Source: a virus (lineage: Duplodnaviria > Caudoviricetes). Taken from it: DNA of 64,000 bases. Under the pieces are notes generated by a model. It was given only the letters and a program-made list of their open reading frames with translations. It ran no database searches and had not been told where the DNA came from. The translations under genes and the position numbers were made by a program. How positions within the stretch are numbered: position 1 is the first letter of the stretch; each line of letters starts with the position of its first letter. The stretch is taken from the IMG/VR virus record IMGVR_UViG_3300032007_000069, positions 10,328 through 74,327 of that record. One strand, 5' to 3'. Of the stretch, positions 40,370 to 64,000 are shown in pieces.

Positions 40370-40978
40370 ATGAAAGAAATTGTAGTAGCAGTCCCGGACG
40401 GCAAAAGAGCTGAATGGGTGAATGGTGTGCTCACACTCGTTGACGACGTTGTGGAAGCCACGAAAGACGAGCGTCCTGTAATGGAACGCATCAAGACGTT
40501 TGAAGATGCCTGCGATGAAGTTGGCAGACTTGCCGAAAGAGGTAACGAAGGCCTTGCCACACTACTGGCAGACTATGAGTCCAATGCTGACAACATCAAG
40601 ACGAAGGGTACGCTGGCATACATGAAGCTGTGCATCATAGCGGCAGCTCTCAACGAAGGTTGGGAACCTCAGTTCACTACTGACGAATACCGCTGGTACC
40701 CTTGGTTCACATTATGGACGAAAGAGGAACTGACAGACAAGACCGAAGAGTGGAAGCAGGAGCATAAGCTGTGGTGGGGCGGTTCCTCGCTCCTCGGGTC
40801 GCTTTGCGGTCTCGCTTATGCGCGCTCGGCCCCCGCTTGGTCGCACTCGGCCGCGTGCATCTCGGCTCGCCTTGCTGTCAAGTCAGAAGAGTTGGCAGAC
40901 TACTTCGGAAAGCAGTTCATTGAGATTTGGGCAGACTATGTTGGCCCGTTTAACCTAAAGGAAGAAAGTGATGATTGA
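40370..40978 (+). CDS. DGR target protein 2 (remote, non-structural region)
   Basis: Contains VR2; IAAALNEGWEP...YRWYPWF core; starts at AAGAGCAATG. Confidence 0.9.
   Translation: MKEIVVAVPDGKRAEWVNGVLTLVDDVVEATKDERPVMERIKTFEDACDEVGRLAERGNEGLATLLADYESNADNIKTKGTLAYMKLCIIAAALNEGWEPQFTTDEYRWYPWFTLWTKEELTDKTEEWKQEHKLWWGGSSLLGSLCGLAYARSAPAWSHSAACISARLAVKSEELADYFGKQFIEIWADYVGPFNLKEESDD
40766..40876 (+). repeat. DGR variable repeat VR2
   Basis: Aligns to TR 10697-10810 with 21 substitutions, all at TR adenines, plus one 3-nt gap (ATC) near the 5' end. Confidence 0.95.
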
Positions 40979-42143
40979 TAAGCTGAAAGTTTATGCACGG
41001 ACGATAGAAGATGAAGCCGTGCAGCAGATTGACAAGATGAACGGCTGTGATGCGTACAAGGATTGCCTGGTGCGCATCATGCCGGACTGCCATGCAGGTA
41101 TCGGTTGCACGATAGGTACGGTCATTTACCTGCAGGACAGGATAGTTCCCAATACGGTAGGTGTTGACATCGGCTGTGGTATGCTGGTCACCTGTCTCGG
41201 CAAGCAGGAGGTGGACTTGGAACGTCTCGATGAGGTAATCAATGAGAAGATACCTTCGGGCTTCAATATCCATGACAAGCAGCGTCGAGCCTTCCACCTG
41301 CTCGACAAGATGTACTGCAAGGAAGTCATTGACGAAGACATGGCTCTGCGAAGCATCGGCTCCCTCGGTGGTGGCAACCACTTCATCGAATTGGATGAGG
41401 ATGGTAACGGCAACAAGTACCTTGTCATTCACAGCGGAAGCCGAAACCTCGGCAAGCGAGTGTGTGACTACTGGCAGAAGAAAGCTGTTGACTACTGCAA
41501 GAAGCAGCAGTGCGATGAGCAGGAGATTATCGCACGTCTGAAAGCAGAAGGTCGTGAGCGTGAGATTTCAGCAGCCATAGCGGAAGCCAAGTCAAAGGCT
41601 GGTAAGATTGACAAGGAGCTGGCATACGTCGAAGGTACGGATGCCTCTCACTACCTGTTCGACATGATGATCTGCCAGAGCTATGCAAGCGAGAACCGCC
41701 ACACCATGGCCGACATCATCTGCCGTGAAATGGGATTGAAGGTGGAGCGTCAGTTCCAGACCATCCACAATTACATCGACCTGCAGCACAAAATCCTGCG
41801 TAAGGGAGCAGTAAGCGCCCTCAGAGGCGAGGAACTTCTGATACCCATCAACATGCGTGATGGCTCGCTCCTCTGTGTCGGCAAGGGCAACCTTGACTGG
41901 CTCTACTCAGCGCCTCACGGTGCCGGACGTCTGATGTCTCGCAAGAAAGCCAAGGAAACGCTCGACATGGCAGACTTCGAGAAGTCGATGGAGGGTGTCT
42001 ATACCACCTCGGTTTGCGAGAGCACGATAGATGAGGCTCCGATGGCGTACAAGCCCATGAAGGAGATCCTGGAGTGCATCGAGCCGACGGTGGAAGTGGT
42101 AGCGGTAATCAAGCCCTTGTACAATTTCAAGGCGAAGCAGTAA
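40968..42143 (+). CDS. rtcB: RtcB RNA ligase
   Basis: MPDCHAG, VGVDIGCG, GGGNHFIE, IHSGSR, HNYID, SAPHGAGR, DEAPMAYK. Confidence 0.95.
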   Translation: MMIDKLKVYARTIEDEAVQQIDKMNGCDAYKDCLVRIMPDCHAGIGCTIGTVIYLQDRIVPNTVGVDIGCGMLVTCLGKQEVDLERLDEVINEKIPSGFNIHDKQRRAFHLLDKMYCKEVIDEDMALRSIGSLGGGNHFIELDEDGNGNKYLVIHSGSRNLGKRVCDYWQKKAVDYCKKQQCDEQEIIARLKAEGREREISAAIAEAKSKAGKIDKELAYVEGTDASHYLFDMMICQSYASENRHTMADIICREMGLKVERQFQTIHNYIDLQHKILRKGAVSALRGEELLIPINMRDGSLLCVGKGNLDWLYSAPHGAGRLMSRKKAKETLDMADFEKSMEGVYTTSVCESTIDEAPMAYKPMKEILECIEPTVEVVAVIKPLYNFKAKQ

Positions 42144-42162: not shown

Positions 42163-43533
42163 ATGACGTACAATGAGACGATATTGTTCCGTCGCTTCAT
42201 GGAGAGCAAGGGGGTACTCAATAATTACGAGTACCTCTACCGCTCCCATCGTTTCGACAATCGGGATATAAACCAGTTCTTTGATGAAGTTGATGCAGAG
42301 GACGTGATATTGTCGGCCTTTGACTTCTCTGGAGCAAGGAGCACCATCTTCGGCTATCAGTATTGGAAGAAGATGAATGAGAAATGGCAAGTCCGTCTCA
42401 GCGAGTACAGAAATTCCGGCCAGTTGGAGGAGAACGTTCAGATATTGTGCGTCCACTGCAAGCGCACGTTACCGAAGTCTTCTTTCGCATACACCACGAA
42501 GGGAGTCTTGCACAAGCATTGTAAGGAATGCGAGAGCGGTGAGTGGGACAGGAAGCGCAAGGAGAAAGAAAAGGAAGAGCAGGAACGTGAGAAACAGGAG
42601 AAAGCGGCCAAGCAGCTCGAAAAGGAAATCATGGAAAAGGAAACCAAGTTGAATAAGACGACGAAGGTTTGCACCCATTGCGGTAAGCGTAAGCTGAGGT
42701 CTGAGTTCCTCCCCTCATCCACTTCTGAGGACGGCTTGCAATCCTGGTGTAGGAAATGCCAAGATGCAGCGGCAAACGTAAGTGCTGAGGCAGACTGGCA
42801 AATGGAACGTGAAAAGAAGCGCGAGGAAATGATCGAGCTTCCGTCCGCAAAGCCTGCCTCCCTCGACAAGCTGACGGCACCGAAGCTGGGTGAGTATGAT
42901 GCTACGTTGCACTATAAGGCAGCGCAGAAGAGTATCACCTTCAACGCTACCCTGTCGGAGCAGCTGCAGGCTGGTCAGTTCACCAAATGCTATCTGAAGA
43001 CGGATATGGCACAGAGGTTATTCCTCATCTTCAATCGTGTCGAAGGTGCCAACGTCGTAGGTGTCAGCAGCCGTGCATCCATGTTGCTCGGTATCAACTC
43101 AGCCGACATTTGCAGGTCGCTGGCAGCTCGCTTCAACCTGTCGCTGGGTGAGAACTACTACCTGCACATCACTCGTAACCTGTCGAGACGTGAAGAGGTG
43201 GCCACCATCGAAGTGCTGGCAGTCAGAAGCCGTGAAGAGTATGTTGGTATAGCGCAGAGACGTGATGGCAACGAGCCATCAGAGTCAGAACTGGAGCATC
43301 CGGTGGTTCAACCTCAGCCGATAGTTGAGACACCAGCTCTGAAGAAGTCAGAACCTAAGAAACCCGAAACGAAACCCACTATGGAGTTTAGCACACCAAT
43401 GAAAGCCGAAGAGAAGCTTCAGTGGCTTATCGAGAACAATCATTTGACCGAGCAAGACCTCGCTGCCTTCCTCTACAAGAAAGGATGGAAGTTGCAGGAG
43501 CCTGTGAGGTCGTATAAGAAATTCACACTATAA
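42163..43533 (+). CDS. Hypothetical protein with two CxxC...CxxC Zn-ribbons
   Basis: CVHC...CKEC and CTHC...CRKC. Confidence 0.65.
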   Translation: MTYNETILFRRFMESKGVLNNYEYLYRSHRFDNRDINQFFDEVDAEDVILSAFDFSGARSTIFGYQYWKKMNEKWQVRLSEYRNSGQLEENVQILCVHCKRTLPKSSFAYTTKGVLHKHCKECESGEWDRKRKEKEKEEQEREKQEKAAKQLEKEIMEKETKLNKTTKVCTHCGKRKLRSEFLPSSTSEDGLQSWCRKCQDAAANVSAEADWQMEREKKREEMIELPSAKPASLDKLTAPKLGEYDATLHYKAAQKSITFNATLSEQLQAGQFTKCYLKTDMAQRLFLIFNRVEGANVVGVSSRASMLLGINSADICRSLAARFNLSLGENYYLHITRNLSRREEVATIEVLAVRSREEYVGIAQRRDGNEPSESELEHPVVQPQPIVETPALKKSEPKKPETKPTMEFSTPMKAEEKLQWLIENNHLTEQDLAAFLYKKGWKLQEPVRSYKKFTL

Positions 43534-45026: not shown

Positions 45027-45325
45027 GACCGGAGAACAGGGCCAGATACCCGAAGGATTGGAAGGAGATACGTGCAAGCATCTTGAAGCGTGCCGGCAAC
45101 CGATGTGAGTTCTGTGGCATCGAGAACTATGCCATCAGAGAGAACGGTTCCAAGGTCGTGCTGACGATAGCCCACCTCGACCATATCCCAGAGCATTGCG
45201 ACCCGAGCAATCTGCGAGCTTTGTGTCAGAAGTGTCATAACCAGTACGATGCAGCCCATCGTGCAGAGACAAGGAAACGTACCAGGAATGAAAAGGAAAA
45301 AGATTTGCCCTCATTGTGGCCGTAG
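45017..45325 (+). CDS. HNH endonuclease-like protein
   Basis: CEFCG, LTIAHLDH, NLRALCQKCHN. Confidence 0.8.
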   Translation: MPIRPENRARYPKDWKEIRASILKRAGNRCEFCGIENYAIRENGSKVVLTIAHLDHIPEHCDPSNLRALCQKCHNQYDAAHRAETRKRTRNEKEKDLPSLWP

Positions 45326-45872
45326 CCTGTGGCTGTCCTCATTCTACCCTCAGAAGGGTGGTGGAAGGTCAAGCTGGTGCAAGGATTGTCAGAGGCAGTC
45401 CAAGCGTGACTGGTATGCAGCCAACAGGAAGAAGCCGGATGGTACGCACTATGACAGAGAGACGGGAAGGTGTTATGTTCACAACGGCTGCAGCAAGCGT
45501 ATCATGTGGAGCCGTCAGATGCTCGATGATCTGCGCTCGATGTTTCCGACCACTCAGAACGCAGAACTGGCAGGCATCCTCGGTGTGAGTCAGAGGACGA
45601 TGATACGCAAGGCTCGTGAGCTTGGTCTGGAGAAGAACAAGACTTGGCTTCTGAAGCAGTGGGAGGACAACAGGTTTCTCGCTCATTGCGTGGCAAAGCA
45701 GAAAGGCTATCCGGGTTCCATCAAGAAGGGTGAGCATAGAGGTCGTGACAACGAGTTCAAGCCTGGTCACAGAATGGCTGACGAAGAGAAGGAGAAGCAG
45801 TCTCGCTCGTTGAAGGCCTCATGGGTGAAAAGAAGATTCAAGAACATAATGAAGAAAAGACATGGCGAATAA
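45288..45872 (+). CDS. Zn-ribbon plus HTH protein
   Basis: CPHCG...CKDC and AELAGILGVSQRTMIRKARELGL. Confidence 0.65.
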   Translation: MKRKKICPHCGRSLWLSSFYPQKGGGRSSWCKDCQRQSKRDWYAANRKKPDGTHYDRETGRCYVHNGCSKRIMWSRQMLDDLRSMFPTTQNAELAGILGVSQRTMIRKARELGLEKNKTWLLKQWEDNRFLAHCVAKQKGYPGSIKKGEHRGRDNEFKPGHRMADEEKEKQSRSLKASWVKRRFKNIMKKRHGE

Positions 45873-47808: not shown

Positions 47809-48468
47809 ATGGAATTTTTCAAGACAATCGCAGATTTCCTGCAAGACGGCCAGCAGCTACAGATGGCCATTCGTAAGAGCGGTGAAAACATCGCAGTAAG
47901 TATCTTGCCCGACAACAGAGGTGTCAAGGACAAGGCAGTAGAGAACATCACTCCGCTGGTCATGAGCGGAAGCCCAGAGGAGTTCGAGGAAGGCTTTGCC
48001 GACGCTCTCAAGCCTCTGCAGGAGGCACAGGGCTTAGTGTCTAACATCAAGGAGTTTGAGGCGAACACCGAGAAAGCCAAGCGTGAGTCCGAAATGGCAA
48101 AGAAGCTCAAGGACGAAGCCGCTAAGCAGAAGAAGGAGTTCAACGACCTCATCGCTCTTGCCCGTAAGAACAACGAGGAGCACAAGTTCAAGGATGCTCG
48201 CACGGTACTGGCAAAGGCTACTGCACTCCCTGCAGCAGAGAAGTCAATCATTGACAAGGTGCGCAAGGAGATTGACGACAAGTCCGGTGTCGGTAATATG
48301 TTCGGAGGCGAGGAAGATCTGAGCGACGGCAAGGGTATCTCAGTATCGGCATCCAAGCCTGCACCTGCTCCAGAGAAGAAGTCAGACACGGACGCTGCCT
48401 TTGCTGAGGCAATGGAACTGTCTGACGAAGACAACGAGAATGACAACCAAGAAGAAGAGGAGGAATAG
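47809..48468 (+). CDS. PRTRC system protein E
   Basis: PLVMSGSPEEFEEGF N-terminal domain; first gene of a canonical cassette. Confidence 0.8.
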   Translation: MEFFKTIADFLQDGQQLQMAIRKSGENIAVSILPDNRGVKDKAVENITPLVMSGSPEEFEEGFADALKPLQEAQGLVSNIKEFEANTEKAKRESEMAKKLKDEAAKQKKEFNDLIALARKNNEEHKFKDARTVLAKATALPAAEKSIIDKVRKEIDDKSGVGNMFGGEEDLSDGKGISVSASKPAPAPEKKSDTDAAFAEAMELSDEDNENDNQEEEEE

Positions 48469-48471
48469 ACT

Positions 48472-48681
48472 ATGGCACTTAACGTAACAGGTATGAAGCG
48501 TGTCTTCAAGTTCGGTAATCGTGAGCTGAAAGACCCAGACAAGAACATGTCGCCCGAAGATGTGATGCAGTTCTATTCGGGAACGTACCCGGAGTTGACC
48601 ACCAGCAACGTCCACGGCCCCAAGGTCGAAGAGGATAAGGCGGTCTATGAGTTCAAGACAACGGTAGGAACAAAGGGATGA
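48472..48681 (+). CDS. PRTRC system protein C (prokaryotic ubiquitin-like)
   Basis: RVFKF...LKDPD...SPEDVMQFYSGTYPELTT...VGTKG with terminal Gly. Confidence 0.88.
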   Translation: MALNVTGMKRVFKFGNRELKDPDKNMSPEDVMQFYSGTYPELTTSNVHGPKVEEDKAVYEFKTTVGTKG

Positions 48682-48688
48682 GTAAGAA

Positions 48689-49876
48689 ATGCGAACAGCA
48701 GTCAGATTTCCACAAAGCCCTGTACGGAGTTATAGAGTCACTCCACAAGTCAGAGTATCGCGTGAGAGAGGAGCGGCACGAAAGGCTGCTTCCTCCCTCA
48801 GCGCCCCTGCTTTTCTGACACAGCGGATTGACGATATACGTCCGGCAGAGACGGATGGCATGAATGCTTACGGCATAGACCTCGTGAAGAGCTATAAGCA
48901 TGTTCTGAAGTGCTGCAAGAGGTTCTGTCGGTTCGTGGGTCTGAAGTTTGACTTCACCCCACGGGCTGACCTCACGAAGAGCCAGTTGCTCGGAGAGCTG
49001 ATAGATTATTTCGACAAGCTGATACGTCCGCTCGGTCTGGATTTCTTCGTCAGCAAGAAGACATCGCAAGGCGACGAGACAAGCGTTCTCGAATGTGCAG
49101 TCTATCGGTACGGCTCAGAGCTGGCAGAGACTATCGTGATTATGTATGTCGCTCCTGCGAGGTATCTGTCCCCTAAGAGCGCAGAGTACTTCAAGCGGTT
49201 CATGAAGTTCTTCAGTGACAGCACGAACATTCCGCTCGGCATCATAGGTCATAGCGAGAACTTCTATCTCGACAGCATCCTCGGTATGTACGAGGAAGAT
49301 CCGTTCTACGATGAGGATGATGAGGACGAAGAACGTGACAAGCGCAAGGCCATAGCTGCTGCCTACAACGAGGACGGTGAGTTTTGGAACCTGTTTGATG
49401 AGATAGGTTCTCTCCCCAAGCAGGATGCAGAGAAGCTGGTAGACGAGATAGACAAGTACAGGTGTGAGAGTCCGGAAGAGGAGCTGGGTCTCATGGAGAG
49501 TCTGATAGAGGGCATCCCAATCGTCAAGGACATGAACTACTACTGGTTTGAGTTCAATCCAGAGGATGATGGCCTGCCCGATGCCTACGGCAATACTGAT
49601 GGCGACGGATGGTCAAGCGGTGTGTTTGCCTCTGCCATCCTCTACTCAGAGCAGGATGGTATCAGCGAGCAGCTTCTTGAATCCATCAACAGCGAGGTAA
49701 ATGCAGGTATCATGATGTCCGGCTGGAACATTCATCAGTACCTCTACGAAGACGTGAAGAAGGAGGTCATAGCCGACTTCATGCGTTGTAAGGATAAGGT
49801 AGGAGATTTCGACAAGTGGTTACGTTCTTATTACACGGAAATGGAAGAATTTGACAAGTATGGGAAGTCTAAGTAG
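48689..49876 (+). CDS. PRTRC system protein F-like
   Basis: Acidic 395-aa protein located between C and B. Confidence 0.6.
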   Translation: MRTAVRFPQSPVRSYRVTPQVRVSRERGAARKAASSLSAPAFLTQRIDDIRPAETDGMNAYGIDLVKSYKHVLKCCKRFCRFVGLKFDFTPRADLTKSQLLGELIDYFDKLIRPLGLDFFVSKKTSQGDETSVLECAVYRYGSELAETIVIMYVAPARYLSPKSAEYFKRFMKFFSDSTNIPLGIIGHSENFYLDSILGMYEEDPFYDEDDEDEERDKRKAIAAAYNEDGEFWNLFDEIGSLPKQDAEKLVDEIDKYRCESPEEELGLMESLIEGIPIVKDMNYYWFEFNPEDDGLPDAYGNTDGDGWSSGVFASAILYSEQDGISEQLLESINSEVNAGIMMSGWNIHQYLYEDVKKEVIADFMRCKDKVGDFDKWLRSYYTEMEEFDKYGKSK

Positions 49877-50561
49877 TATTTTGAATAGCAAGTTGGAGCC
49901 GACTGATGCCCTGGTGTTCTATAAGAGCACGTTGAGCAACGGAGGCTCGTATGTGGAACACAGAGCCATCAAGAACGGTGTGATGGGTGCAGGTGCTCCG
50001 CTCGAAATAGATGTGCTTGCGAAGATTATGAAGACGGTGGATAAGTTCGCTCACGACACCACGTCGATGGTCTCGCTGCATGGAGTGATACCAGAGAACC
50101 TTCTGTATGCCAGTGCAAGCATTGACAGCTACAAGATGGTGTGGTATAGGAAGCCAGAGAAGCGGATGATGTACTTCGTTGATACGCTCGGCATACCGAA
50201 CGGGGAAATGGAGATACCTGGTCTTGTGTACTCGACGGACGGGCGAGGCCTCAGAGTCTTCGCCTTCAAGGGCAGCAAGCCGAAGAAGCTCCTGTTCTAT
50301 GCTCCGTTCTTCAATGTTGACGACCATGTGTGCCTCGGCAGTGCTAAGATCGCCAAGCCGAAGGTGCAGACGTACCAGAACTGGATGCAGTACTGGGAGG
50401 ATATGTTTTGGAAGTCTGAGTTTGCGCACATCTTAGGCGGAAATCCGGTGAAGGGCAACCTTTCCATCATTACCAAGGAGTGCATCAAGGAGCATAAGCC
50501 CTTCCCTATGGGGCAACTGAAGAAGTCAAAATTCACATTACAAAGGTTGTATGAAATATAG
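49851..50561 (+). CDS. PRTRC system protein B (prokaryotic E2 family D)
   Basis: VWYRKP, IPGLVY, APFFNV..HVCLG (catalytic Cys), FWKSEFAH. Confidence 0.85.
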   Translation: MTSMGSLSSILNSKLEPTDALVFYKSTLSNGGSYVEHRAIKNGVMGAGAPLEIDVLAKIMKTVDKFAHDTTSMVSLHGVIPENLLYASASIDSYKMVWYRKPEKRMMYFVDTLGIPNGEMEIPGLVYSTDGRGLRVFAFKGSKPKKLLFYAPFFNVDDHVCLGSAKIAKPKVQTYQNWMQYWEDMFWKSEFAHILGGNPVKGNLSIITKECIKEHKPFPMGQLKKSKFTLQRLYEI

Positions 50562-51348
50562 GCATTTTGTTCACAATTACATGCTGAACCCTCAGCATCC
50601 GTTGACGGTCTCGGTGATAGGAGCTGGAGGAACTGGCTCGCAGGTACTCACGGCACTCGGGAGAATGAACTACGCTCTGATGGAGCTGGGGCATCCTGGT
50701 CTGCAGGTGAGAGTGTATGATGAAGACATAGTGACCCAAGCCAACTGCGGACGTCAGTTGTTCGCTCCACAGGAGATAGGTCTCAACAAGGCTGATGTGC
50801 TTGCTACGAAGCTGAATATGTTCTTCGGAACGGCATGGGAGAGTTTCCCTGTCATGTACGATGTGAACACGGAACGCTCGAACATCACCATATCGTGCGT
50901 CGATACGGTCAAGTCACGTCTGGAGATAGCGAAGAACCTGCTTAACGGACAGAACAGCAGGTATGGCGACATGGGAAGGACGTTCTACTGGCTCGACTTT
51001 GGCAACACGCTCAACTCTGGTCAGGTGGTGTTAGGCTCGGTGTTTGACATCACACAGCCGAAGGGCAAGAGAAGCTGCATAGGCAAGCTGAGGACGGTGA
51101 CTGAAATGTTCGACCTCTCGAAGGTGAATGAGAAGAAGTCCGGTCCAAGTTGCTCCCTTGCAGAAGCGTTGAGCAAGCAAGATCTGTTCATCAACTCCAC
51201 GTTGGCAAACATAGGTATGGCGCTCATGTGGAAGATGTTCACGAAAGGAGTGCTTGAGACACAGGGTGCGTTCCTCAACCTCGAAACGATGAAGGTAAAC
51301 CCGATAAAGATAGAGAAGGTATGGGAAGGCCGACAGGTAACGGATTGA
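50551..51348 (+). CDS. PRTRC ThiF/E1-like enzyme
   Basis: VIGAGGTGSQ, DEDIVTQANCGRQ, CVDT, WLDFGN, GPSCSLAEALSKQDLFIN. Confidence 0.92.
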   Translation: MKYRHFVHNYMLNPQHPLTVSVIGAGGTGSQVLTALGRMNYALMELGHPGLQVRVYDEDIVTQANCGRQLFAPQEIGLNKADVLATKLNMFFGTAWESFPVMYDVNTERSNITISCVDTVKSRLEIAKNLLNGQNSRYGDMGRTFYWLDFGNTLNSGQVVLGSVFDITQPKGKRSCIGKLRTVTEMFDLSKVNEKKSGPSCSLAEALSKQDLFINSTLANIGMALMWKMFTKGVLETQGAFLNLETMKVNPIKIEKVWEGRQVTD

Positions 51349-51711: not shown

Positions 51712-52110
51712 ATGAAGATATTTACCAGCTATTTCGCAAACATGAGCAAGTTGAGCAAGGAGGGTGTCATGCCAATCTGCATCGCTCGCTACGCTCCAAG
51801 ATGGTACAGCGGCCCTCAGTATTTGGACGTTGCGCCAACAGGTTATATGCTGAGTGCAGCCTGTAACCATGAGGAATATCTGAAGAAGTACGACGATATA
51901 CTGAAGCGTCTCGTTCCGGCTGATGTGGTGAGGTCGATAGAACGTATCTCACAGGGCAGGGACGTGGCTCTTTGCTGCTATGAGAAGCCTGGTGACTTCT
52001 GCCACCGCCACCTTCTGGCTGACTGGCTCACAAAGAACGGCTACGAGGTTAAGGAGTGGGAGTCCAAGGAAGAGAAAGCCAAGGCACAGCAGCTATCCCT
52101 ATTTGACTGA
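51712..52110 (+). CDS. DUF488-family protein
   Basis: MKIFTSYF, LDVAPT, ALCCYEKPGDFCHRHLLADWL. Confidence 0.8.
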   Translation: MKIFTSYFANMSKLSKEGVMPICIARYAPRWYSGPQYLDVAPTGYMLSAACNHEEYLKKYDDILKRLVPADVVRSIERISQGRDVALCCYEKPGDFCHRHLLADWLTKNGYEVKEWESKEEKAKAQQLSLFD

Positions 52111-52202: not shown

Positions 52203-52275
52203 GCTTCGATAGCTCAGTAGGTAGAGCAACAGCCCTTTAAGCTGTGGGTCCATGGTTCGAGTCCATGTCGTGGCA
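52203..52275 (+). tRNA. tRNA-Lys(UUU) with C33
   Basis: Full cloverleaf; anticodon stem ACAGC/GCTGT, loop CCTTTAA; one T-T mismatch in the acceptor stem; CCA not encoded. Confidence 0.85.
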
Positions 52276-52284
52276 CAGACTGAT

Positions 52285-52372
52285 GAGCTTGTATGGCTTA
52301 CGCAAGTAAGAGGTAAAGGGAAGCCAGATGTAGATGCTGGCAACGATGCAGGTTCGAGTCCTGTCAAGTTCG
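52285..52372 (+). ncRNA. tRNA-like element with non-canonical D and anticodon arms (Tyr-like GTA in loop)
   Basis: Acceptor GAGCTTG/CAAGTTC and T arm GCAGG-TTCGAGT-CCTGT are present; the interior does not form a standard cloverleaf. Confidence 0.55.
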
Positions 52373-52378
52373 GACGTT

Positions 52379-52452
52379 TAGCAGTTAGCTCAGTTGGTAG
52401 GAGCGCCCGATCGTTAATCGGGAGGTCATGGGTTCGAGTCCCATACTGCGTT
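52379..52452 (+). tRNA. tRNA-Asn(GUU) with U32/C33
   Basis: Anticodon stem CCCGA/TCGGG, loop TCGTTAA; T arm ATGGG-TTCGAGT-CCCAT; only 5 clear acceptor pairs. Confidence 0.75.
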
Positions 52453-52456
52453 CTAA

Positions 52457-52535
52457 TTGGTGTCCGTTACGGAGCAAGTAAGTCCAGATTCCAAATGGCA
52501 TGCAGCCACTCCGGCAATTACCGAAACGGCACCAA
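52457..52535 (+). ncRNA. Unidentified structured RNA in the tRNA cluster
   Basis: Closing stem TTGGTG(T)CCGTT/AACGGCACCAA; inner CGGAG/CTCCG and TGGC/GCCA stems. Confidence 0.4.
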
Positions 52536-52538
52536 CAT

Positions 52539-52611
52539 CGCGGAATAGAGCAGATGGTAGCTCGGCTGGCTCATAACCAGCAGGTCGCAGGTTCGAGTCC
52601 TGCTTCCGCAA
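52539..52611 (+). tRNA. tRNA-Met(CAU), initiator-like
   Basis: C1-A72 mismatch, initiator-type GAGC/GCTC D stem, loop CTCATAA; only two of the three anticodon-stem G-C pairs. Confidence 0.88.
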
Positions 52612-52617
52612 CAAAGA

Positions 52618-53496
52618 TTGCGAAATATGAGATATATCGTATCGAGGGAAATCCTCAACCAGAACATTGATTCTGCGCAGACCATGATAGGTTCGCGCAG
52701 ACTTTCGTTGATGTTCAAGGAATACTATGAGCGCCTGTACCTCCTTGTTGACCAGCACCCTACGGGCGACATCTTCGCCATCAATCTGCAGGATAGTATC
52801 TGCTATGCCTTGGGTATGGCAAACGAGAAGAACAAGGGAGCCTTGGTGAATAACATCATGGACGCGAAAGCCCTGCATGATAAGGGCATGAGCCAGTTCT
52901 ATGTACCTATCGACACCTGCGATGGACGTGAGGGCTTGCCAGTCTATGAAGCGAAGCTGCTTGCTGAGGCTATCCATGAGTTCATCGGTAAGAAGACGCT
53001 GGTCACTGGTATGGTGACGAATGGCTGTATCAACGACCTTCATCTGAAGACGAAAGAGGAGTGGAAGGAATTGTGGTCTGCTTTCGGGAACCATCTTACA
53101 GGCCTCTCGGTAGGCGGTAGCTACTGGCTCGACAAGGCGAAGGATCTGCCGGAGTTCGTGCGAGACGTGAGGATAGGCCGCTTCATGCTGTTCGGCTATA
53201 TCCCATACAGCGACAAGAAGTATGGTAGGAACTGCATGGTGGTAGAAGGAAACGTCCTCGGTGTCAATCTCAGACAGCAGAAGGTGATGGTTGACCTCGG
53301 TGATGCCTACTGCGACCCTGTTCAGTGTGTGCCGTACAACGAAGACCTGGTATTCACGGAGTCTTCGAGCAACTACGCTCTGTACACTACACCTCAAGCC
53401 TCTCGGTATTACATCGGTCAGCGGCTTCTATTCACCCCCAATTACAAACATTCATCGGCCTTAGCAAGGTTGGAAGTACAATATGACTATGAATAG
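52618..53496 (+). CDS. PLP fold-type III racemase, ornithine/lysine racemase (Orr/YhfX)-like
   Basis: LMFKE (PLP Lys), IDTCDGREG, TNGC, LSVGGS, VRIGRFMLFG, SSNY and YIGQRLLFTPNY align by eye with ornithine-racemase motifs. Confidence 0.75.
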   Translation: MRNMRYIVSREILNQNIDSAQTMIGSRRLSLMFKEYYERLYLLVDQHPTGDIFAINLQDSICYALGMANEKNKGALVNNIMDAKALHDKGMSQFYVPIDTCDGREGLPVYEAKLLAEAIHEFIGKKTLVTGMVTNGCINDLHLKTKEEWKELWSAFGNHLTGLSVGGSYWLDKAKDLPEFVRDVRIGRFMLFGYIPYSDKKYGRNCMVVEGNVLGVNLRQQKVMVDLGDAYCDPVQCVPYNEDLVFTESSSNYALYTTPQASRYYIGQRLLFTPNYKHSSALARLEVQYDYE

Positions 53497-55495
53497 GACA
53501 GTTGGTTTTGAACTTGAAATATCTGATGTGAAGCGGAGCGATGTATTCGTTCCGCAAGGCTATAGCTGGAGCCGTGAGGAAACACTCTACGGCACAAACG
53601 GCAAGCGTCAATCCCCCACCTCATTGCTCGGAGGCGAGTTGAACACCAGGCCACTATCTTTCACCCATGAGGATATGGAAGAACTGCGCAAGGTGTTCAA
53701 CTCATTTTTTGAAGCCGGAGGGAACGTCATGTGGTGCAACTACTTCCATTGCCATGTGTGGGTAGGTGACTTCACGCTGGATGAGCTGAAAAACGTGTTC
53801 CTGCTGACATATCACACGAACAGGTTCATCAAGGCATACTGCGATGTGAAGCCGTACAGGGAGTTCAACCTGTGTTGTCCTACACCCACCATCGAGTATG
53901 TGGAGAAGTGCCGTGAGGCGGAATCCTTTGAGGCCCTGCAGAACGTCTTCAAGAACAGCAGCAACAAAGGCTATATAAGGCACTTGGTGAACATCAATTC
54001 GTATTGGAAGGTGCAGACGGTGGAGTTTCGTATGTTCGCATCGACACGCAACTTCGACGAGCTGGTAGCATCAGCGTTCTTTGCCATGCGCTTCGTGAAC
54101 TATGCTAAGAACCACACGGAGGAGGACTTCAAGAAGATCCGCTCGATGGAGGACTTCCAGAGGGAATTGAAGATACACATGCCTGTGGCGAAAGTGCTGC
54201 CACACCTCATCAACGCAGGTGACCAGATGTCAGAGAGCGACCGCTTCGTGTCGAGGGTAATCAAGTATTCCTCTCCTATGGTGAAGCTCATCGTGGAGAA
54301 CTGCGGTGACGAGTTATGCTGTGTGAACCCCAATATGTTCGGTCTTGAAATGTCGCTGTTCCCGAAGTTGAAGAGGCTGAGCATCTACAACACCAACGAG
54401 TTCAACGACGTGCTGTATCGGATGGCTACGCAAGGTCTGAAGATACGCTACAAGGATAAGATGGAGTTTCTGGAGCAGTATGCCGACGGTACACCCGAAA
54501 TGGAGATAGTGCGTCTGATGATGTTCCACAGAATACGCAAGTTCATCGCAGACAACGACTATGCGAGGAAGTCCTTTGAGGCCATCGTGTCAGTATTGCC
54601 GGACAGCATCACGAAGGGCTTGGAGGTGGCTCGTAAGATGGTGCAGATGCTTCAGTCGTGCAAGTATGTCAGAGGTACGCTGAATGACGCTCTGGAGAAT
54701 GAGAATGTCGTCTTCTATCAGTATGAGGGTCTGCCGAAGCTGAACAGCACCCTCCATCATCTGGAGAAGCTGTCGGACTTCAAGGCGACGATGGAGCCGA
54801 TGCTAACCAACTATCAAGGTGTGACGGAGAATCTGAAAGAGGGACAGAGGTTGTTCGTTGCCAGCATGGACCAGTATCTCTCGCTCAATCGCCTTGGTTC
54901 TGTGAATGGTCTGATATTGTACTCCAATATCGGTTCCGAGAAGACGAAGGTCTCTGCCTCATTTGAGCCTGTCTATCAGTTCGGCTTCAAGATACCTCCA
55001 GACGATTTGGAGATAGACGACCCGAAGAAGCTGATGATTGTCCCTGCACAGGGCAAGCAGTTCACCATCCTGCAGCACGCTTTCGTGAAGAAGGTGGCCA
55101 GCTTCATGAGCGGACGCTTTCAGTTCATCGTGTACTACGACAACTATGTGCTTGGTGCCTTTGCCTTCGACCTGCCCAAGGCTGAGGGTTATGATGTATG
55201 GCTGCTGTCAGACTTCACGACGAATAACCAGGTGAAGCGGTTGGCGAAGCTCATCCTCCTGTGCATCAAGTCGGCTCCAGTGAAGAAGTTCCTGTCGAGG
55301 AAGCTCCAGCGCACGGCTGAGAAGATGTACACGAAGGTCTATACCACCAGACCTGTTTCCATGAAGTATCGTGGCCCGTTCAAGAAGGTGAAGATAGAGG
55401 GCATGGATAAGGGCTTGGTCTATGAGGCAGATTTCGGTTCGTCCGGAAATGGAGAGGATATTATCAGAGAATATCAAAAAATCATTCAACGATGA
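53483..55495 (+). CDS. Fusion: COOH-NH2 amidoligase (type 2) + degenerate MTase-like + GNAT/Mom-like domain
   Basis: VGFELE, GGELNTRP, HCHVWV and LVN...TVEFRMF in the N-terminus; GAFAF, LLSDF, RLAKLIL and PVSMKYRG in the C-terminus. Confidence 0.7.
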   Translation: MTMNRTVGFELEISDVKRSDVFVPQGYSWSREETLYGTNGKRQSPTSLLGGELNTRPLSFTHEDMEELRKVFNSFFEAGGNVMWCNYFHCHVWVGDFTLDELKNVFLLTYHTNRFIKAYCDVKPYREFNLCCPTPTIEYVEKCREAESFEALQNVFKNSSNKGYIRHLVNINSYWKVQTVEFRMFASTRNFDELVASAFFAMRFVNYAKNHTEEDFKKIRSMEDFQRELKIHMPVAKVLPHLINAGDQMSESDRFVSRVIKYSSPMVKLIVENCGDELCCVNPNMFGLEMSLFPKLKRLSIYNTNEFNDVLYRMATQGLKIRYKDKMEFLEQYADGTPEMEIVRLMMFHRIRKFIADNDYARKSFEAIVSVLPDSITKGLEVARKMVQMLQSCKYVRGTLNDALENENVVFYQYEGLPKLNSTLHHLEKLSDFKATMEPMLTNYQGVTENLKEGQRLFVASMDQYLSLNRLGSVNGLILYSNIGSEKTKVSASFEPVYQFGFKIPPDDLEIDDPKKLMIVPAQGKQFTILQHAFVKKVASFMSGRFQFIVYYDNYVLGAFAFDLPKAEGYDVWLLSDFTTNNQVKRLAKLILLCIKSAPVKKFLSRKLQRTAEKMYTKVYTTRPVSMKYRGPFKKVKIEGMDKGLVYEADFGSSGNGEDIIREYQKIIQR

Positions 55496-56196
55496 AGCAA
55501 GATAAATGGAAAGTCGAGAAGGTCAGTCTCGAAAAGATTGTGCCGGCAGAGCTGAACGCTAACGAAATGTCCGAAGAGGACTTTCAGCAGCTCTGTGAGA
55601 ACATAGGCATCAGTGGCCTTAGTAGTGTGCCGACCTGTTACCGCAGGGAGTCGGACGGAATGTTTGTCACCATCAGCGGCCATCACAGAATCAAGGCTGC
55701 AGAGAAGGAGGGCTATACGGAAATCTACATCATGTACGCAGAGGAGCGTGACTTCGAGCCGGATGAGATTGTGGCTATACAGCTATCCCACAATTCCCTG
55801 CATGGAGAGGACAACAAGGGTATCTTGAAGCGCCTGTTTGAGAGTATCAAGACGGTTCAGTTCAAGAAGTTCGCTCACATAGACATGAATGAGATAGGCA
55901 CCATTGACATCGAGTCGGTGAACATCATTCCCATGCGTGAGACGTACAATGTGTCGGTGGTTCTGTACAAGCAGGACATTCGTCTCTTGGAGGAACTGAC
56001 AGGGTGTGTCAGGGAGGCATTGGATAGCAGCGAGTATGTTATCCTTGCAGACCAGGAGAAGACGGAGGATGCGTACCTTGCGCTGATGAAGGAGGTAGGT
56101 CAGAAGTTTAACATCAAGTCAAGCAACATCGCTTTTGCGAAGATACTTGAGCTTGCAAAAAAACAGATAGAATATGAAAGTTGTAGTAGTAACTAA
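55492..56196 (+). CDS. ParB/Srx N-terminal domain protein
   Basis: IVPAELNANEM, FVTISGHHRIKAA, LSHNSLHGED. Confidence 0.85.
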   Translation: MKQDKWKVEKVSLEKIVPAELNANEMSEEDFQQLCENIGISGLSSVPTCYRRESDGMFVTISGHHRIKAAEKEGYTEIYIMYAEERDFEPDEIVAIQLSHNSLHGEDNKGILKRLFESIKTVQFKKFAHIDMNEIGTIDIESVNIIPMRETYNVSVVLYKQDIRLLEELTGCVREALDSSEYVILADQEKTEDAYLALMKEVGQKFNIKSSNIAFAKILELAKKQIEYESCSSN

Positions 56197-57067
56197 CACG
56201 AGAGAGGTCAATTCTCTTATTCCACAGGTCAAGTTTGACCTCATCAAGGCAACGTTGGCACCTATCGAGGTGCAGATTATGTTCGTTGAGAACGAGGAGG
56301 ATTTCCAGCTTCTCGACAAGATCAGTCAGAACGACATCGTGCTCGTTGAGACCAAGGATGCAGAGACCATTCACCAGATTGCCATTCGTGGCCTCAGACA
56401 CACTGGAGAGGTTCCTGCTGCCGTGAACTTCGACTCGAATAAGGTTGACCTCCGCAAGGCGGTTGCAGGTAAGATTCCCATGCCTGGCTTGTATGTAAGT
56501 CTTGACGAGGTGGAGGATGGCAAGCGTTACTTCGTGAAGCCTCTCATCCTCGAAGACAGCATCGGCATTGACGAGCACTCTCTCTGTCATTCAAAGGCAG
56601 AGGTCGTGGAGCGAGTGAAGTACATCAACGAGAAGTTTGGCAAGCCAGCCATCATCGAGGACTTCATTGAGGGCTATGACGTGACGGTGGGCATCATCAA
56701 TCGTGGTGACAGCTTCATCGTGAAAGCAGTCCGTATTGACTCCCTGCTCGAGGGTGTCCCGTTCCAGTCGGAACAGGTGAAGACGGAAGATCTGCGCGAC
56801 TTCTACGACATGGATGAGCTGAACCCGAAGCTCAGCGAAATGTTGAAGAACATGGCCATCGGTGCTTTCCTCAGTATCGGTGCCACCAACTATGCCCGTC
56901 TGGATTTCCGTGTGACTGAGGCAGGACAGCCTTACCTTATCGAGGTGAACCTGTACCCGGGCTTGAAGGACACAGGAGCGATGTATCGTGCCATCAAGTT
57001 CACAGGCATCCCTTACCGTGACTACTTGTACGAGGTCTTGAACACAGCACGCAGACGTTTGATATAA
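56174..57067 (+). CDS. ATP-grasp ligase, D-Ala-D-Ala ligase-like
   Basis: FVKP...DSIGI, IIEDFIEGYDVTVGII, YARLDFR...YLIEVNLYPG. Confidence 0.85.
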   Translation: MKVVVVTNTREVNSLIPQVKFDLIKATLAPIEVQIMFVENEEDFQLLDKISQNDIVLVETKDAETIHQIAIRGLRHTGEVPAAVNFDSNKVDLRKAVAGKIPMPGLYVSLDEVEDGKRYFVKPLILEDSIGIDEHSLCHSKAEVVERVKYINEKFGKPAIIEDFIEGYDVTVGIINRGDSFIVKAVRIDSLLEGVPFQSEQVKTEDLRDFYDMDELNPKLSEMLKNMAIGAFLSIGATNYARLDFRVTEAGQPYLIEVNLYPGLKDTGAMYRAIKFTGIPYRDYLYEVLNTARRRLI

Positions 57068-57414
57068 TGGCAAAGAACTTCACCATAGAGCAGATTGTGA
57101 CCATTTACGAGAAGAAGGGGTGTAACATCACTTCTACTTGTAAGGCTCTCGGCATATCACGCAAGACCTTCTATGAGTGGAGGGCCAAGAAGAAGAAGCT
57201 CGCTGAGGCTCTGGAGGAGGCTGACGAGTCCATCCTCGACTACGCAGAGAGCAAGTTGGTCGAGCATATTCAGAACGATGATGTGCAGTCCTTGATTTTC
57301 TTCCTAAAGACCAAGGGCAAGAAGAGAGGATATGTAGAGAAGACTGAGAGCGATGTCAACATTAACGCATTTGAGAAACTGATGCAGGAAACTGAAGACG
57401 ACGACGACGAATGA
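57067..57414 (+). CDS. Terminase small subunit-like HTH protein
   Basis: NITSTCKALGISRKTFYEW and LIFFLKTKGKKRGY; directly before terL. Confidence 0.75.
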   Translation: MAKNFTIEQIVTIYEKKGCNITSTCKALGISRKTFYEWRAKKKKLAEALEEADESILDYAESKLVEHIQNDDVQSLIFFLKTKGKKRGYVEKTESDVNINAFEKLMQETEDDDDE

Positions 57415-58922
57415 GTTCTGGTAACAAGCGACAGAATAAGATGCGAGCGTGGCGCAAGGACTGGTGTTTATTTGCCAAACAAGTGCTCCACGCTCGCCTC
57501 GATGAAGAACAGAAGGCAATCCTGCGTGCTGTTCAGAAAGAGCGTATGGTGGCCGTTGCTTCGGGTACAGCCCGAGGCAAGGACTACATCGCTGCTGTTG
57601 CGTGTCTGTGCTTCATGTACCTCACCCCACGCTGGAAGGACGGCAAGCTGATAAAGAACACGAAGATTGCCATGACAGCCCCTACGGACAGACAGGTGGG
57701 TAATATCATGGTGCCGGAGGTTAGACGTCTCTTCAAGGCCGCTGCCGTGCTCCCTGGGCGACTTGTCGGACACGACATCAGAACGGAGTACGAGGAATGG
57801 TTCTTGACAGGTTTCAAGTCGAGTGCAGACAACACGGAGGCTTGGTCAGGTTTCCATGCCGTCAACACCATGTTCGTGGTGACAGAGGCATCGGGTATCT
57901 CAGAAACCATCTATAATGCCATCGAGGGTAACCTGCAGGGTAACTCACGTCTGCTGATTGTGTTCAACCCGAACATCACTACTGGATATGCGGCAAAGGC
58001 GATGAAGTCGGAGCGTTTCAAGAAGTTCCGTCTCAACTCCCTTCATGCCGAGAATGTGGTCAAGAAGAAAGACATCATTCCGGGCCAGGTTGACTATGAG
58101 TGGGTGCAGGATAAGGTCAAGAGCTGGAGCATCCCCATCCGCAGGGAAGACTACAACGAGGGTGAGGGTGACTTCGAGTGGGAGGGTCAGTACTACAGAC
58201 CAAATGACCTCTTCCGTGTCAAGGTGCTCGGTATGTTCCCGAAGGTGTCGGAAGACGTGCTCATCCCTTACGAATGGGTGGAGCTTGCAAACGAGCGTTG
58301 GAAGGAACTACAGGAAGAAGGTTTCGAGCCGAAGAAGACCTGCCGTGTCGGTGTCGATGTCGCTGGTATGGGACGTGACTCTTCTGTGCTATGTCCGAGG
58401 TATGGTAACTTCGTAGGAGAGTTCGAGGTGCACAACTCGGCTGGTGTGGCCGACCACATGCACGTCTGTGGCATGGTGGTTCCGTACCTCAAGAAGAAGG
58501 GTGTCAAGGCCTTCGTCGATACCATCGGTGAAGGTGCTGGTGTCTATTCCCGTCTGAAGGAGCTTGGCTATGACTATGCCTATTCCTGCAAGTTCTCGGA
58601 GGGCGCGAGAAACCTCTCTGACATCACGGAGGTACGCACATTTGCGAATATGCGAGCCTACCTGTATTGGGCGGTGAGGGACTGGCTTGATCCGAAGAAC
58701 GGCTTCTATCCAGCGTTGCCTCCCAACGACTTGCTCATGCAGGAGTGCACGGACGTCCATTGGAAGTTCCAGAGCGATGGCGACATCATCATAGAACCCA
58801 AGGAAGACATCAAGAAGAGGCTCGGTCGAAGCCCGGACTACCTCGATGCACTGGCCAACACGTTTTACCCACGAGACTACGAAGTTGTGCAAGAAAACGA
58901 AATTTTCGGGGATATGTTGTAG
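57411..58922 (+). CDS. terL: Terminase large subunit
   Basis: ASGTARGKD Walker A, VTEASG, IVFNP, VGVDVAGMGRD and SPDYLDALA nuclease motifs. Confidence 0.92.
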   Translation: MSSGNKRQNKMRAWRKDWCLFAKQVLHARLDEEQKAILRAVQKERMVAVASGTARGKDYIAAVACLCFMYLTPRWKDGKLIKNTKIAMTAPTDRQVGNIMVPEVRRLFKAAAVLPGRLVGHDIRTEYEEWFLTGFKSSADNTEAWSGFHAVNTMFVVTEASGISETIYNAIEGNLQGNSRLLIVFNPNITTGYAAKAMKSERFKKFRLNSLHAENVVKKKDIIPGQVDYEWVQDKVKSWSIPIRREDYNEGEGDFEWEGQYYRPNDLFRVKVLGMFPKVSEDVLIPYEWVELANERWKELQEEGFEPKKTCRVGVDVAGMGRDSSVLCPRYGNFVGEFEVHNSAGVADHMHVCGMVVPYLKKKGVKAFVDTIGEGAGVYSRLKELGYDYAYSCKFSEGARNLSDITEVRTFANMRAYLYWAVRDWLDPKNGFYPALPPNDLLMQECTDVHWKFQSDGDIIIEPKEDIKKRLGRSPDYLDALANTFYPRDYEVVQENEIFGDML

Positions 58923-62282: not shown

Positions 62283-62479
62283 TGGCAAGCCGTACAAAGA
62301 AACAGCCGGAGGTGTTGCACTTCTGCCGTGAATGTGCCAACGTGACCATCGTGACGAGATTCAACACCCTAAGCATACAGGGCAAGCCCACACTTGGTGA
62401 ATGTCCGTATTGGACGGAATCAAGGTGTGTCCTGTTAAGCCAGGCAGCATGTAAGGAACATTTTAAGCCGAGGGTATAA
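62282..62479 (+). CDS. Small Cys-rich hypothetical protein
   Basis: TAATG overlaps at both ends; CRECA...GECPY...C. Confidence 0.55.
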   Translation: MASRTKKQPEVLHFCRECANVTIVTRFNTLSIQGKPTLGECPYWTESRCVLLSQAACKEHFKPRV

Positions 62480-64000
62480 TGGCAAAGCCAAAGGGTATCA
62501 ATCAGAAAGCCAAATGGAAAGCGCACTCTATTCGTCTTGCGAGATATGCGGATAGAGTGCAATCCGTTTATGATACCCTCAATCTCGAAGTGGCGAGGTT
62601 GGTTCTAAGGTCCGGCTATGACGGTTCCAAGCCCTTCCGCTTCTCAGACTATCCAGCTACCAAGAGGAAGTTCGACGAGATACGTGCGCAGTTCGTGAGT
62701 GAAATGCGCTCTGTTATCTACGCTGGCACTACGGAGGAATGGAAGCAGAGTAACCTCGTGCAGGATTTGCTTGCTGACAAGGCTCTGAAGTTCTATGGCA
62801 TCAAGTCGAGAGGCAAGAAATACCGCAGATACTATCAGACGAACAGCGATGTGCTTAAAGCCTTCCAGCAGCGCAAGGAAGATGGTCTCAACCTGTCACA
62901 GCGGTTGTGGAACCAGTCGGGCAACTACAAGGAGGAAATGGAGTACTGCCTGTCTTCGGCTATCGAGAAGGGCACCAGTGCCGTGAAGCTGTCGAAGAGA
63001 CTGAGCAAGTACCTTACAGACTTTCCGTCCCTCAAGAAAGACTACAAGGAGAAGTATGGCAAGGCTGTCGCCTGTCAAGACTGCGAGTATCGTTCCATCC
63101 GTCTTGCACGTTCCGAGATAAACATGGCCTACAGGATTGCCGAGCAGGAGCGATGGAAGCAGTTTGACTTCGTGCTGGGCTATGAGGTGAAGCTCACTCA
63201 GAACGGACATCATGTGCCGGACATCTGCGATGATCTTGCTGGCAAGTACCCGAAGGACTTTGTGTTCAAGGGCTGGCATCCGAACTGCATGTGCTATGTC
63301 ATTCCAATCCTTATGAGCGAAGACCAGTTCTGGGGTAACGAGGAAGTGAAGCCCATCGAGGAGGTTCCAGATGAAATGAAGGTGTGGATAAAGAACAATG
63401 AGGAGCGTCTTGAAGAAGCGGAGGAAAGAGGTACGCTGCCTTATTGGATAACGGACAACTCAGACAAGATTGAGGATATTCGCTCGAAGGACATTCACGA
63501 CTTGGTTGATACGAGCATACCCATATTCAAGGGCAAGCGTGCTCTGCTCCATGAGAGAGAGGATTTGTATGAGACCCTTCTTGAAGATGCAGAATATGAG
63601 GACGTGCGCTTCGACAGCAAGTCGCTTGGTCTGATGGCCACCCATATAGAGCACAACTTCGACAAGCGAGGCGGTGTCTATGAGAAAGCCGTGCAGAAGG
63701 CAGGCTTCAGATCCGGTCATGCCGTTATCCTGGAAAAGGAATATGGTGATGTCATTGGCGAGCGTTTCACAGAAGGTACGTGGGATGGTCTGGAGTTCGA
63801 GGTAGCTGGTCGAGAGACTGCAACGGAGAACAACGTGCTCAGAGGTCTCAAGCATTGTGCCTTGAAGAAGAAGACGCAGGTTGCCGTCCTGCATTTCCCG
63901 AAGGGTGGCTTTGATGAGGAGGTGCTTGACAAGGTTCTGAGACGATACAAGGGACTGGAGAAGTTGAAGGATGGTCAGTACCTAAAGTTCGAGCGTATTG
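62479..64000 (+). CDS. MuF/SPP1 gp7-like head morphogenesis protein with C-terminal extension (runs off the window; absent from the ORF track)
   Basis: Manual translation is open for 507 codons; RLARSEINMAY, ICDDLAG and GWHPNCMC MuF motifs. Confidence 0.85.
   Translation, partial: MAKPKGINQKAKWKAHSIRLARYADRVQSVYDTLNLEVARLVLRSGYDGSKPFRFSDYPATKRKFDEIRAQFVSEMRSVIYAGTTEEWKQSNLVQDLLADKALKFYGIKSRGKKYRRYYQTNSDVLKAFQQRKEDGLNLSQRLWNQSGNYKEEMEYCLSSAIEKGTSAVKLSKRLSKYLTDFPSLKKDYKEKYGKAVACQDCEYRSIRLARSEINMAYRIAEQERWKQFDFVLGYEVKLTQNGHHVPDICDDLAGKYPKDFVFKGWHPNCMCYVIPILMSEDQFWGNEEVKPIEEVPDEMKVWIKNNEERLEEAEERGTLPYWITDNSDKIEDIRSKDIHDLVDTSIPIFKGKRALLHEREDLYETLLEDAEYEDVRFDSKSLGLMATHIEHNFDKRGGVYEKAVQKAGFRSGHAVILEKEYGDVIGERFTEGTWDGLEFEVAGRETATENNVLRGLKHCALKKKTQVAVLHFPKGGFDEEVLDKVLRRYKGLEKLKDGQYLKFERI

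Follow-up and report, generated by a model that had tools for sequence, protein, structure and literature searches.

Why would a temperate phage line up enzymes of amino-acid chemistry directly in front of the genes that package its DNA? This question is raised by the IMG/VR virus record IMGVR_UViG_3300032007_000069, of which positions 10,328 to 74,327 were analyzed. This stretch, referred to here as the window, covers 64 kb of a 74.3-kb record that is estimated to be 99% complete, and it belongs to a temperate, siphovirus-like phage with relatives of the Bacteroidales type. Between 51.7 and 58.9 kb of the window lies a set of genes, all on the plus strand and overlapping or abutting one another, that we call the kit. 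It encodes a DUF488-N3a protein, tRNAs, an enzyme of the pyridoxal phosphate (PLP) class, a fusion of an amidoligase with a Dam-like and a GNAT domain, a ParB-like protein and an ATP-grasp ligase. The kit most likely attaches an amino-acid-derived group to the phage's own DNA. That it modifies DNA in some manner we regard as probable, and a late-expressed, post-replicative hypermodification is the best explanation for its composition. The original prediction, made from the letters of the sequence, had described overlapping open reading frames that lead into terS and terL, an arrangement confirmed by the coordinates and by PHROG matches for the small (57067–57414; phrog_309, 1.9e-12) and large (57411–58922; phrog_2, 8.5e-31) terminase subunits.

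Which of these genes belong together? Relatives of the fusion protein are present on at least 389 IMG/VR contigs. The proteins of the window were used to scan 87 viral loci, consisting of the best 80 of these 389 and 7 others, as well as 38 loci from bacterial genomes. In viral and genomic loci alike, the invariant set consists of DUF488-N3a, the fusion and ParB, almost always placed directly upstream of terS and terL. Nearly every related locus has the DUF488-N3a gene upstream of the fusion, and without exception a ParB-like gene follows the fusion. Conservation of this core extends over hundreds of phages and prophages. The genes named in the original prediction are indeed part of the kit, but it overlooked two conserved components, the DUF488-N3a gene (51712–52110) and the tRNA genes (52203–52612).

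The remaining positions are filled by different enzymes in different lineages. Among the 87–88 viral loci, the slot between DUF488 and the fusion is occupied by an opine dehydrogenase in 38, by a fold-type III PLP enzyme in 14 and by an Acetyltransf_1 GNAT in 7, while the slot between ParB and terS holds a Ddl-like ATP-grasp enzyme in 64 and a dehydrogenase of the AlaDH/PNT family in 9. With the exception of one DUF4417 protein, all occupants of both slots that can be assigned by Pfam are amino-acid enzymes; a few small open reading frames carry no assignment. Rare accessories of sister kits include a GNAT with a weak NlpC/P60 match and the DUF4417 protein (L020:4622–5992, L046:5274–5999), and a relative of the latter follows terS in locus L101. 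Among isolates, Muribaculaceae bacterium MF13079 (CP061009) carries prophages with two versions of the kit: L094 combines PLP enzyme and ATP-grasp as the window does, and L096 shows the AlaDH-like variant. Another related prophage locus, L107, lies in Prevotella vespertina A2879.

A shorter form of the kit exists as well. Here the fusion is composed of DAM-like-phage1 and GNAT-phage-like domains and lacks the amidoligase, with the same DUF488 and ParB partners. Such kits occur in Leptospira, Chlorobiaceae, Aquificaceae, Planctomycetes and the Gordonia phage Sting (gp28 and gp29), and they share with the window's form the PF22559 GNAT family and a location near packaging genes. The window's form is distinguished by its N-terminal amidoligase, by a Dam-like subfamily (PF22556) without a PPY-type motif, and by one or two accessory amino-acid enzymes. 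The extra amidoligase and the accessory enzymes imply a product more elaborate than that of the short form.

What does the fusion protein do? Its 670 amino acids (53483–55495; phrog_2443) match three Pfam families above their cut-offs: Amidoligase_2 (PF12224; 55 bits, cut-off 22), DAM-like-phage2 (PF22556; 66 bits) and GNAT-phage-like (PF22559; 104 bits). An AlphaFold model, built with 21 homologues and reaching a pLDDT of 88, was compared with 48,161 PDB representatives (VIA Z scores). In this model, the amidoligase domain (amino acids 1–245; 53483–54217) resembles over residues 3–244 the YbdK-like carboxylate-amine ligase 1tt4 with a Z score of 11.0 and plant glutamate-cysteine ligase with a Z score of 10.4, and residues E10, E12, E52, H91, E181 and R183 are invariant in the alignment. 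The proposed fusion with a COOH-NH2 amidoligase is thus upheld by profile, fold and conserved residues. Among PDB sequences, neither sequence nor profile searches with the fusion yielded anything meaningful, and tblastn against cultured phages produced isolated GNAT or amidoligase pieces but no relative over the full length.

The middle domain (amino acids about 250–485; 54230–54937) is Dam-like. Over residues 259–484 the model resembles E. coli Dam (2ore; Z 10.2 over 183 residues), T4 Dam (1q0s; Z 9.1) and DpnM (2dpm; Z 8.8). The alignments with DNA adenine methylases extend over 183–190 residues and include the recognition region, as compared with about 130 residues for generic methylases. 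Neither the S-adenosylmethionine-binding motif I (FxGxG) nor the catalytic (D/N)PPY is present in the family alignment: strand 1 is followed by a loop VNPN, Y-x-x-G-T-x-x-D-A stands at the position of motif IV, and the sole PP of the region is a PPDD in the linker. A methyltransferase-like region devoid of motif I and PPY had been anticipated by the original prediction, and the Dam fold and the motif-free alignment agree with it. We presume that this domain serves as a base- or DNA-binding module.

The C-terminal domain (amino acids 505–670; 54995–55495) is modeled as a GNAT fold over residues 510–653, and its best structural match is Mu Mom (8bv8), with a Z score of 10.5 over 137 residues. 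Foldseek retrieved Naa50 and GCN5 for this domain with an E-value of 1e-4. The domain carries an invariant LSDF...PVSMKYRG, and the family, set beside Mom with its catalytic R111 and S124, possesses invariants of its own at D577, R606, S626, K628 and R630. The acyl-CoA pyrophosphate loop Q/R-x-x-G-x-G/A is missing; instead, DF(T/C)TNNxVxRL follows the strand at 572–579 in every member. The earlier proposal that the C-terminus is GNAT- or Mom-like holds for the GNAT fold, with Mom as best fold match; by sequence the domain is no member of the Mom family.

The ParB-like protein (55492–56196; 234 amino acids) matches phrog_7405 at 1e-56 and consists of an N-terminal ParB/Srx nucleotide-binding domain with an invariant SGHHR box and a C-terminal domain. 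Pfam ParB_N matches are found in its relatives, and its designation as a ParB/Srx protein is confirmed by the ParB-like PHROG families and the SGHHR box. Assignment of the protein to a PRTRC module upstream of the kit was considered and rejected: TIGR03734 gave no match at E≤0.01, whereas profiles did identify PRTRC E, C, B and ThiF upstream. A precedent comes from phages in which a small ParB-like protein switches on its cognate DNA-modifying dioxygenase on double-stranded DNA (5mYOX176/ParB176; O'Toole et al. 2026, PMC13229309). The kit has in common with these ParB-dependent thymine dioxygenases a small phage ParB-like protein without obvious DNA-binding domain and its pairing with an enzyme that modifies bases after replication, a function that is presumed for the kit, but the partner there is an iron/2-oxoglutarate dioxygenase, the chemistry of which is unrelated to that of the kit. 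The third core component, the DUF488-N3a protein (132 amino acids; Pfam PF22751, 39.5 bits), shows the motif C89...C97-H98-R99, invariant in the alignment, and found nothing among PDB sequences.

Why are tRNA genes embedded in such an operon? Dereplication at 90% identity of the fusion left 33 lineages, for 31 of which the upstream region is in view. Eighteen of these 31 have one or more tRNA genes in the interval from DUF488 to the fusion; in 14 of the 18 a tRNA-Gly or Gly-like gene is among them. Gly or Gly-like tRNAs account for 15 of the 31 in-kit tRNAs, where about 1.5 would be expected (naive binomial P 4e-12, ignoring shared ancestry). U33 is near-universal in tRNAs; of the in-kit tRNAs, 13 of 31 have a residue other than U33 or an anticodon loop of 6 or 8 nucleotides (naive binomial P 1e-14, again ignoring shared ancestry). 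Several possess an ACC anticodon, or TGC in place of TTC in the T-loop, and all Gly types retain the GCG...CGC-U73 acceptor end. Sister phages, too, have in-kit tRNAs for Ser, Arg and Gly that deviate from U33.

The window itself encodes three tRNAs in this position, each detected by ARAGORN and Infernal: tRNA-Lys(UUU) (52203–52276; Infernal 62.6 bits, supported by alignment), tRNA-Asn(GUU) (52379–52453) and tRNA-Met(CAU) (52539–52612). The Lys and Asn tRNAs, with loops CCUUUAA and UCGUUAA, both carry C33 instead of U33; the loop of tRNA-Met is canonical. Additional tRNA-like elements had been suspected in the spacers 52277–52378 and 52454–52538, neither of which yields an Rfam match at E≤1. 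The fourth tRNA of the genome is a tRNA-Gly(UCC) that lies outside the window (genome positions 7190–7264, locus L092), between the major head and tape-measure genes of the late structural module. Its T-loop reads UGCGAAU, with G at position 55, its D-loop lacks GG, and it matches in type the tRNA-Gly that L037, the largest sister lineage, carries within its kit. There is a precedent for a tRNA of this kind: the staphylococcal non-proteogenic tRNA-Gly with a TGC T-loop is reserved for the GNAT-fold transferase FmhB (PMC7826273). As in the FemX/FmhB system, the kit pairs a GNAT-fold transferase with a dedicated tRNA-Gly that keeps the identity elements for glycyl-tRNA synthetase (G1-C72, C2-G71, U73, C35, C36) and has TGC in the T-loop. 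The acceptors differ; in staphylococci it is a peptidoglycan precursor, for the kit DNA is presumed.

How could these parts act together? Phage Mu provides the closest guide. Its Mom protein belongs to the GNATs and takes glycine from Gly-tRNA, placing it on adenine N6 in double-stranded DNA; the adduct subsequently rearranges (Silva 2026, PMC13219725). Mom (PF25680) and the kit are alike in the GNAT fold, late expression, the association with tRNA-Gly and the target, adenine in double-stranded DNA, which for the kit is presumed. They differ in that Mom stands alone, uses host tRNA and has no detectable sequence relation to the kit GNAT, which forms one protein with a Dam-like domain and an amidoligase, is always accompanied by ParB and DUF488, and comes with atypical tRNAs of its own and extra amino-acid enzymes. 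By analogy, the ParB-like protein would activate the fusion or load it on double-stranded phage DNA, where the methylase-dead Dam-like domain would present a base, probably adenine with its N6. The GNAT domain could then move an aminoacyl group from a charged tRNA to this base, as Mom does with Gly-tRNA; the donor might be the TGC-type tRNA-Gly of the phage, the in-kit C33 tRNAs for Lys and Asn, or both. The fused amidoligase and the Ddl-like ATP-grasp enzyme would next lengthen the adduct through amide bonds. The fold-type III PLP enzyme would process the amino acid that is added, plausibly one of D configuration, and by its bulk the final mark may block nucleases of the host. Such a ParB-assisted, tRNA-dependent aminoacylation of DNA with subsequent extension by ligases is, in our estimation, about an even bet. 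None of the approximately 20 early-region open reading frames checked encodes a thymidylate-synthase-like protein, kinase or dioxygenase, and no precursor-nucleotide pathway was found among them, which fits the modification of a canonical base after replication. The general notion of DNA hypermodification by amino-acid chemistry, coupled to the terminase, receives support, though not every step originally proposed for it: by analogy with Mom (PMC13219725), transfer of a prebuilt peptide by the GNAT domain is less likely than aminoacylation first and ligase extension thereafter.

A number of observations weigh against this sequence of events. In the structural comparison, the margin of Mom over ordinary GNATs is below 1 Z unit, dozens of GNATs lying at Z 9–10.5. 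The Mom profile PF25680 does not match the GNAT domain even at E≤1, although the same library gives Mu Mom a score of 253 bits, and hhalign assigns a probability of 1.9% to the GNAT-family versus Mom alignment; the whole fusion is likewise not significant versus Mom, and on these grounds we rejected the GNAT domain as a sequence member of the Mom family. DPPY has been lost in this Dam-like subfamily, so that adenine targeting rests on the fold and on relatives. N6-aminoacyl adenines rearrange (Silva 2026, PMC13219725), which complicates extension of the adduct by ligases. The in-kit tRNAs of the window are specific for Lys, Asn and Met, and none for Gly. In-kit tRNAs are absent from 13 of the 31 lineages and from all 13 short-form genomic loci (0/13). 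The phage furthermore encodes a homologue of the RNA ligase RtcB (40968–42143; Pfam 210 bits), which suggests tRNA repair, and the phage tRNAs could serve against anticodon nucleases. Finally, the PLP enzyme and the ATP-grasp enzyme do not co-vary, and each occurs without the other.

Could DNA be modified without any tRNA? In such a scheme, a ligase-activated carboxylate or an acyl-CoA would be the donor, the GNAT/Dam-like module would transfer it to the base, and the tRNAs would be ordinary ones, or decoys or replacements directed against anticodon nucleases. Two ATP-dependent ligases in the kit could furnish activated acyl groups, Lys and Asn tRNAs are classic targets of anticodon nucleases, and the RtcB homologue, the lineages devoid of in-kit tRNAs and the lack of sequence homology to Mom all speak for it. 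The enrichment of tRNA-Gly and the non-decoding features, that is 6-nucleotide loops, A33 or C33, ACC anticodons and the TGC T-loop, however, fit poorly with a role in decoding or as decoys, and the GNAT domain is without the CoA pyrophosphate loop motif. Moreover, short-form kits keep the GNAT domain but have no ligase, which indicates that the GNAT needs another activated donor. We consider a tRNA-free route unlikely, though the most serious contender.

Might the target be RNA instead? The Dam-like/GNAT/amidoligase enzyme could hypermodify a base in the kit's own tRNAs, to protect or retune them. tRNA commonly bears amino-acid-containing base modifications, and both the tRNA genes within the operon and the presence of RtcB would be accounted for. 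Such a role is very unlikely in view of a middle domain that matches DNA adenine methylases with their recognition region, a tight coupling of the kit to the terminase, the many kits that contain no tRNA, and a constant ParB-like partner of a class shown to activate DNA-modifying enzymes on double-stranded DNA (PMC13229309).

What, then, do the accessory enzymes contribute? The PLP enzyme (52627–53496; 289 amino acids) is open from a TTG at 52618, and ATG 52627 is favored as its start because tRNA-Met ends at 52612. No match was obtained for it in Pfam, PHROG, NCBIfam or PDB sequences, and none to PF01168 at E≤0.01. Its structure model (pLDDT 75) retrieves only fold-type III PLP enzymes among the top 38 fold matches. 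D-Ser dehydratase and D-Thr aldolase score Z 14.3; racemases follow at Z 13.5–12.0, with alanine (13.5–12.4), serine, histidine and lysine as substrates, and decarboxylases reach 11.7 at most. The modeled protein shows the barrel and beta-domain of this fold type, with a lysine where strand 1 ends and the RxG motif for phosphate/N1; none of its residues could be assigned as the second catalytic base, Tyr265' in racemases. K31 (LMFKE), R101, C134 (TNGC), S161xGGS165 and R182xG184 are invariant even in relatives of about 20% identity. All 30 of its 30 embedding neighbors are Ala_racemase_N. The model thus confirms a place in the alanine-racemase/D-Ser-dehydratase structural group. As to the racemase named in the original prediction, fold type, PLP lysine and cysteine are correct, but dehydratases and aldolases are equally close in structure; racemization would be one of two or three possible activities, all on D-amino acids or their precursors.

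The ATP-grasp ligase (56174–57067; 297 amino acids) matches Dala_Dala_lig_C (PF07478) with 65 bits and contains the RLDF...EVN motifs. All of its 26 PDB matches are Ddl enzymes, the best at 3e-10. Ddl_N (PF01820) is not matched, and the protein scores 64 bits versus NCBIfam Ddl cut-offs of at least 243. Judged from these profiles, it is a relative of the Ddl family and not a Ddl orthologue, in keeping with the expectation of intact Mg-binding motifs without the Ddl N-terminus. Do racemase and ligase form a pathway? Their independent occurrence implies that a fixed route in which a racemase feeds a Ddl-like ligase is not general. Both genes are optional and swapped independently across loci; they are interchangeable tailoring modules rather than part of the core. 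DUF488, fusion, ParB and terminase are kept together across loci, but PLP enzyme and ATP-grasp ligase are not coupled.

Enzymes of this sort are familiar from other pathways. A Ddl-like ligase, a racemase-like PLP enzyme, an opine dehydrogenase and an amidoligase are all at home in cell-wall and metabolite chemistry, and one relative shows a weak NlpC/P60 match, so that the product might be no nucleic acid at all, but stem peptides of peptidoglycan, a small metabolite of peptide or opine type, or else a virion or host protein that carries a modification. Yet the enzymes of the metabolite type are the variable part of the kit, and the invariant core is a Dam-like DNA-enzyme fold and a ParB-like protein beside the terminase; membrane, export or cell-wall-binding domains were not seen in the cassette. 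Nothing was found in support of peptidoglycan remodeling, which the original prediction had listed as an alternative, and we rate a product of this class as the least probable of the explanations weighed here.

A modification of DNA has a further parallel in the thymidine hypermodification clusters of phages, among whose neighbors amidoligases were noted as unexplained (Lee et al. 2021, PMC8989533). Kit and clusters both surround a conserved DNA-modifying core with combinatorial, natural-product-like tailoring enzymes. The latter, however, start from 5-hydroxymethyldeoxyuridine with a kinase and an aGPT-Pplase, none of which was found in the open reading frames checked in the kit's phage.

Several genes in the vicinity deserve mention. 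A PRTRC ubiquitin-like module is situated at 47809–51348, just upstream of the kit, and contains protein E, the ubiquitin-like protein C, a 395-amino-acid protein without assignment, the E2-like protein B and a ThiF-type E1. Pfam and NCBIfam profiles detected neither PRTRC ParB nor protein A in this module, and the module was not found beside the kit in related loci. The proteins at 42163–43533 and 45249–45872 have HNH/endonuclease VII-like and Lar-like restriction-alleviation PHROG matches. A MuF-like head morphogenesis protein at 62479–63999, the open reading frame of which leaves the window, also matches a PHROG named Bxa ADP-ribosyltransferase (5.6e-69). The 9-kb region of the kit produced zero megablast matches to 50,697 phage records.

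Is the kit new? Literature searches by domains and Pfam names retrieved no paper that describes the domain combination or the function of the kit. Pfam holds families for each piece, and the architecture is therefore already catalogued. In comparison with Mom-like aminoacylation of DNA, the novelty lies in the amidoligase built into the fusion, in amino-acid tailoring enzymes that vary in combination and include a fold-type III PLP family, and in the private, non-decoding tRNAs. In its most elaborate version, a short peptide-like or opine-like chain would be built on a DNA base, with dedicated non-decoding aminoacyl-tRNAs (Gly, Lys, Asn) as donors, a Mom-like GNAT, and a ligase-added unit that is possibly a D-amino acid; by exchanging tailoring enzymes, lineages would generate a family of 'peptidyl-DNA' marks. 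We consider this version in its entirety quite unlikely.

To our knowledge, a single tRNA-dependent DNA modification is known, that of Mom (2026). If the proposed function is true, tRNA-dependent DNA chemistry extends to a large family that crosses phyla, with at least 389 viral contigs and with representatives in prophages of Bacteroidota, Leptospira, Chlorobiaceae, Aquificaceae and Planctomycetes and in actinophages, and phages keep non-decoding tRNAs of their own to donate amino acids. Several new DNA adducts are predicted from the amidoligase form, whose PLP, ATP-grasp and dehydrogenase partners can be swapped, and matching prophages in sequenced isolates make the kit directly testable. 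Such adducts would bear on restriction evasion, on sequencing artefacts in gut viromes and on the enzymatic, site-specific derivatization of DNA.

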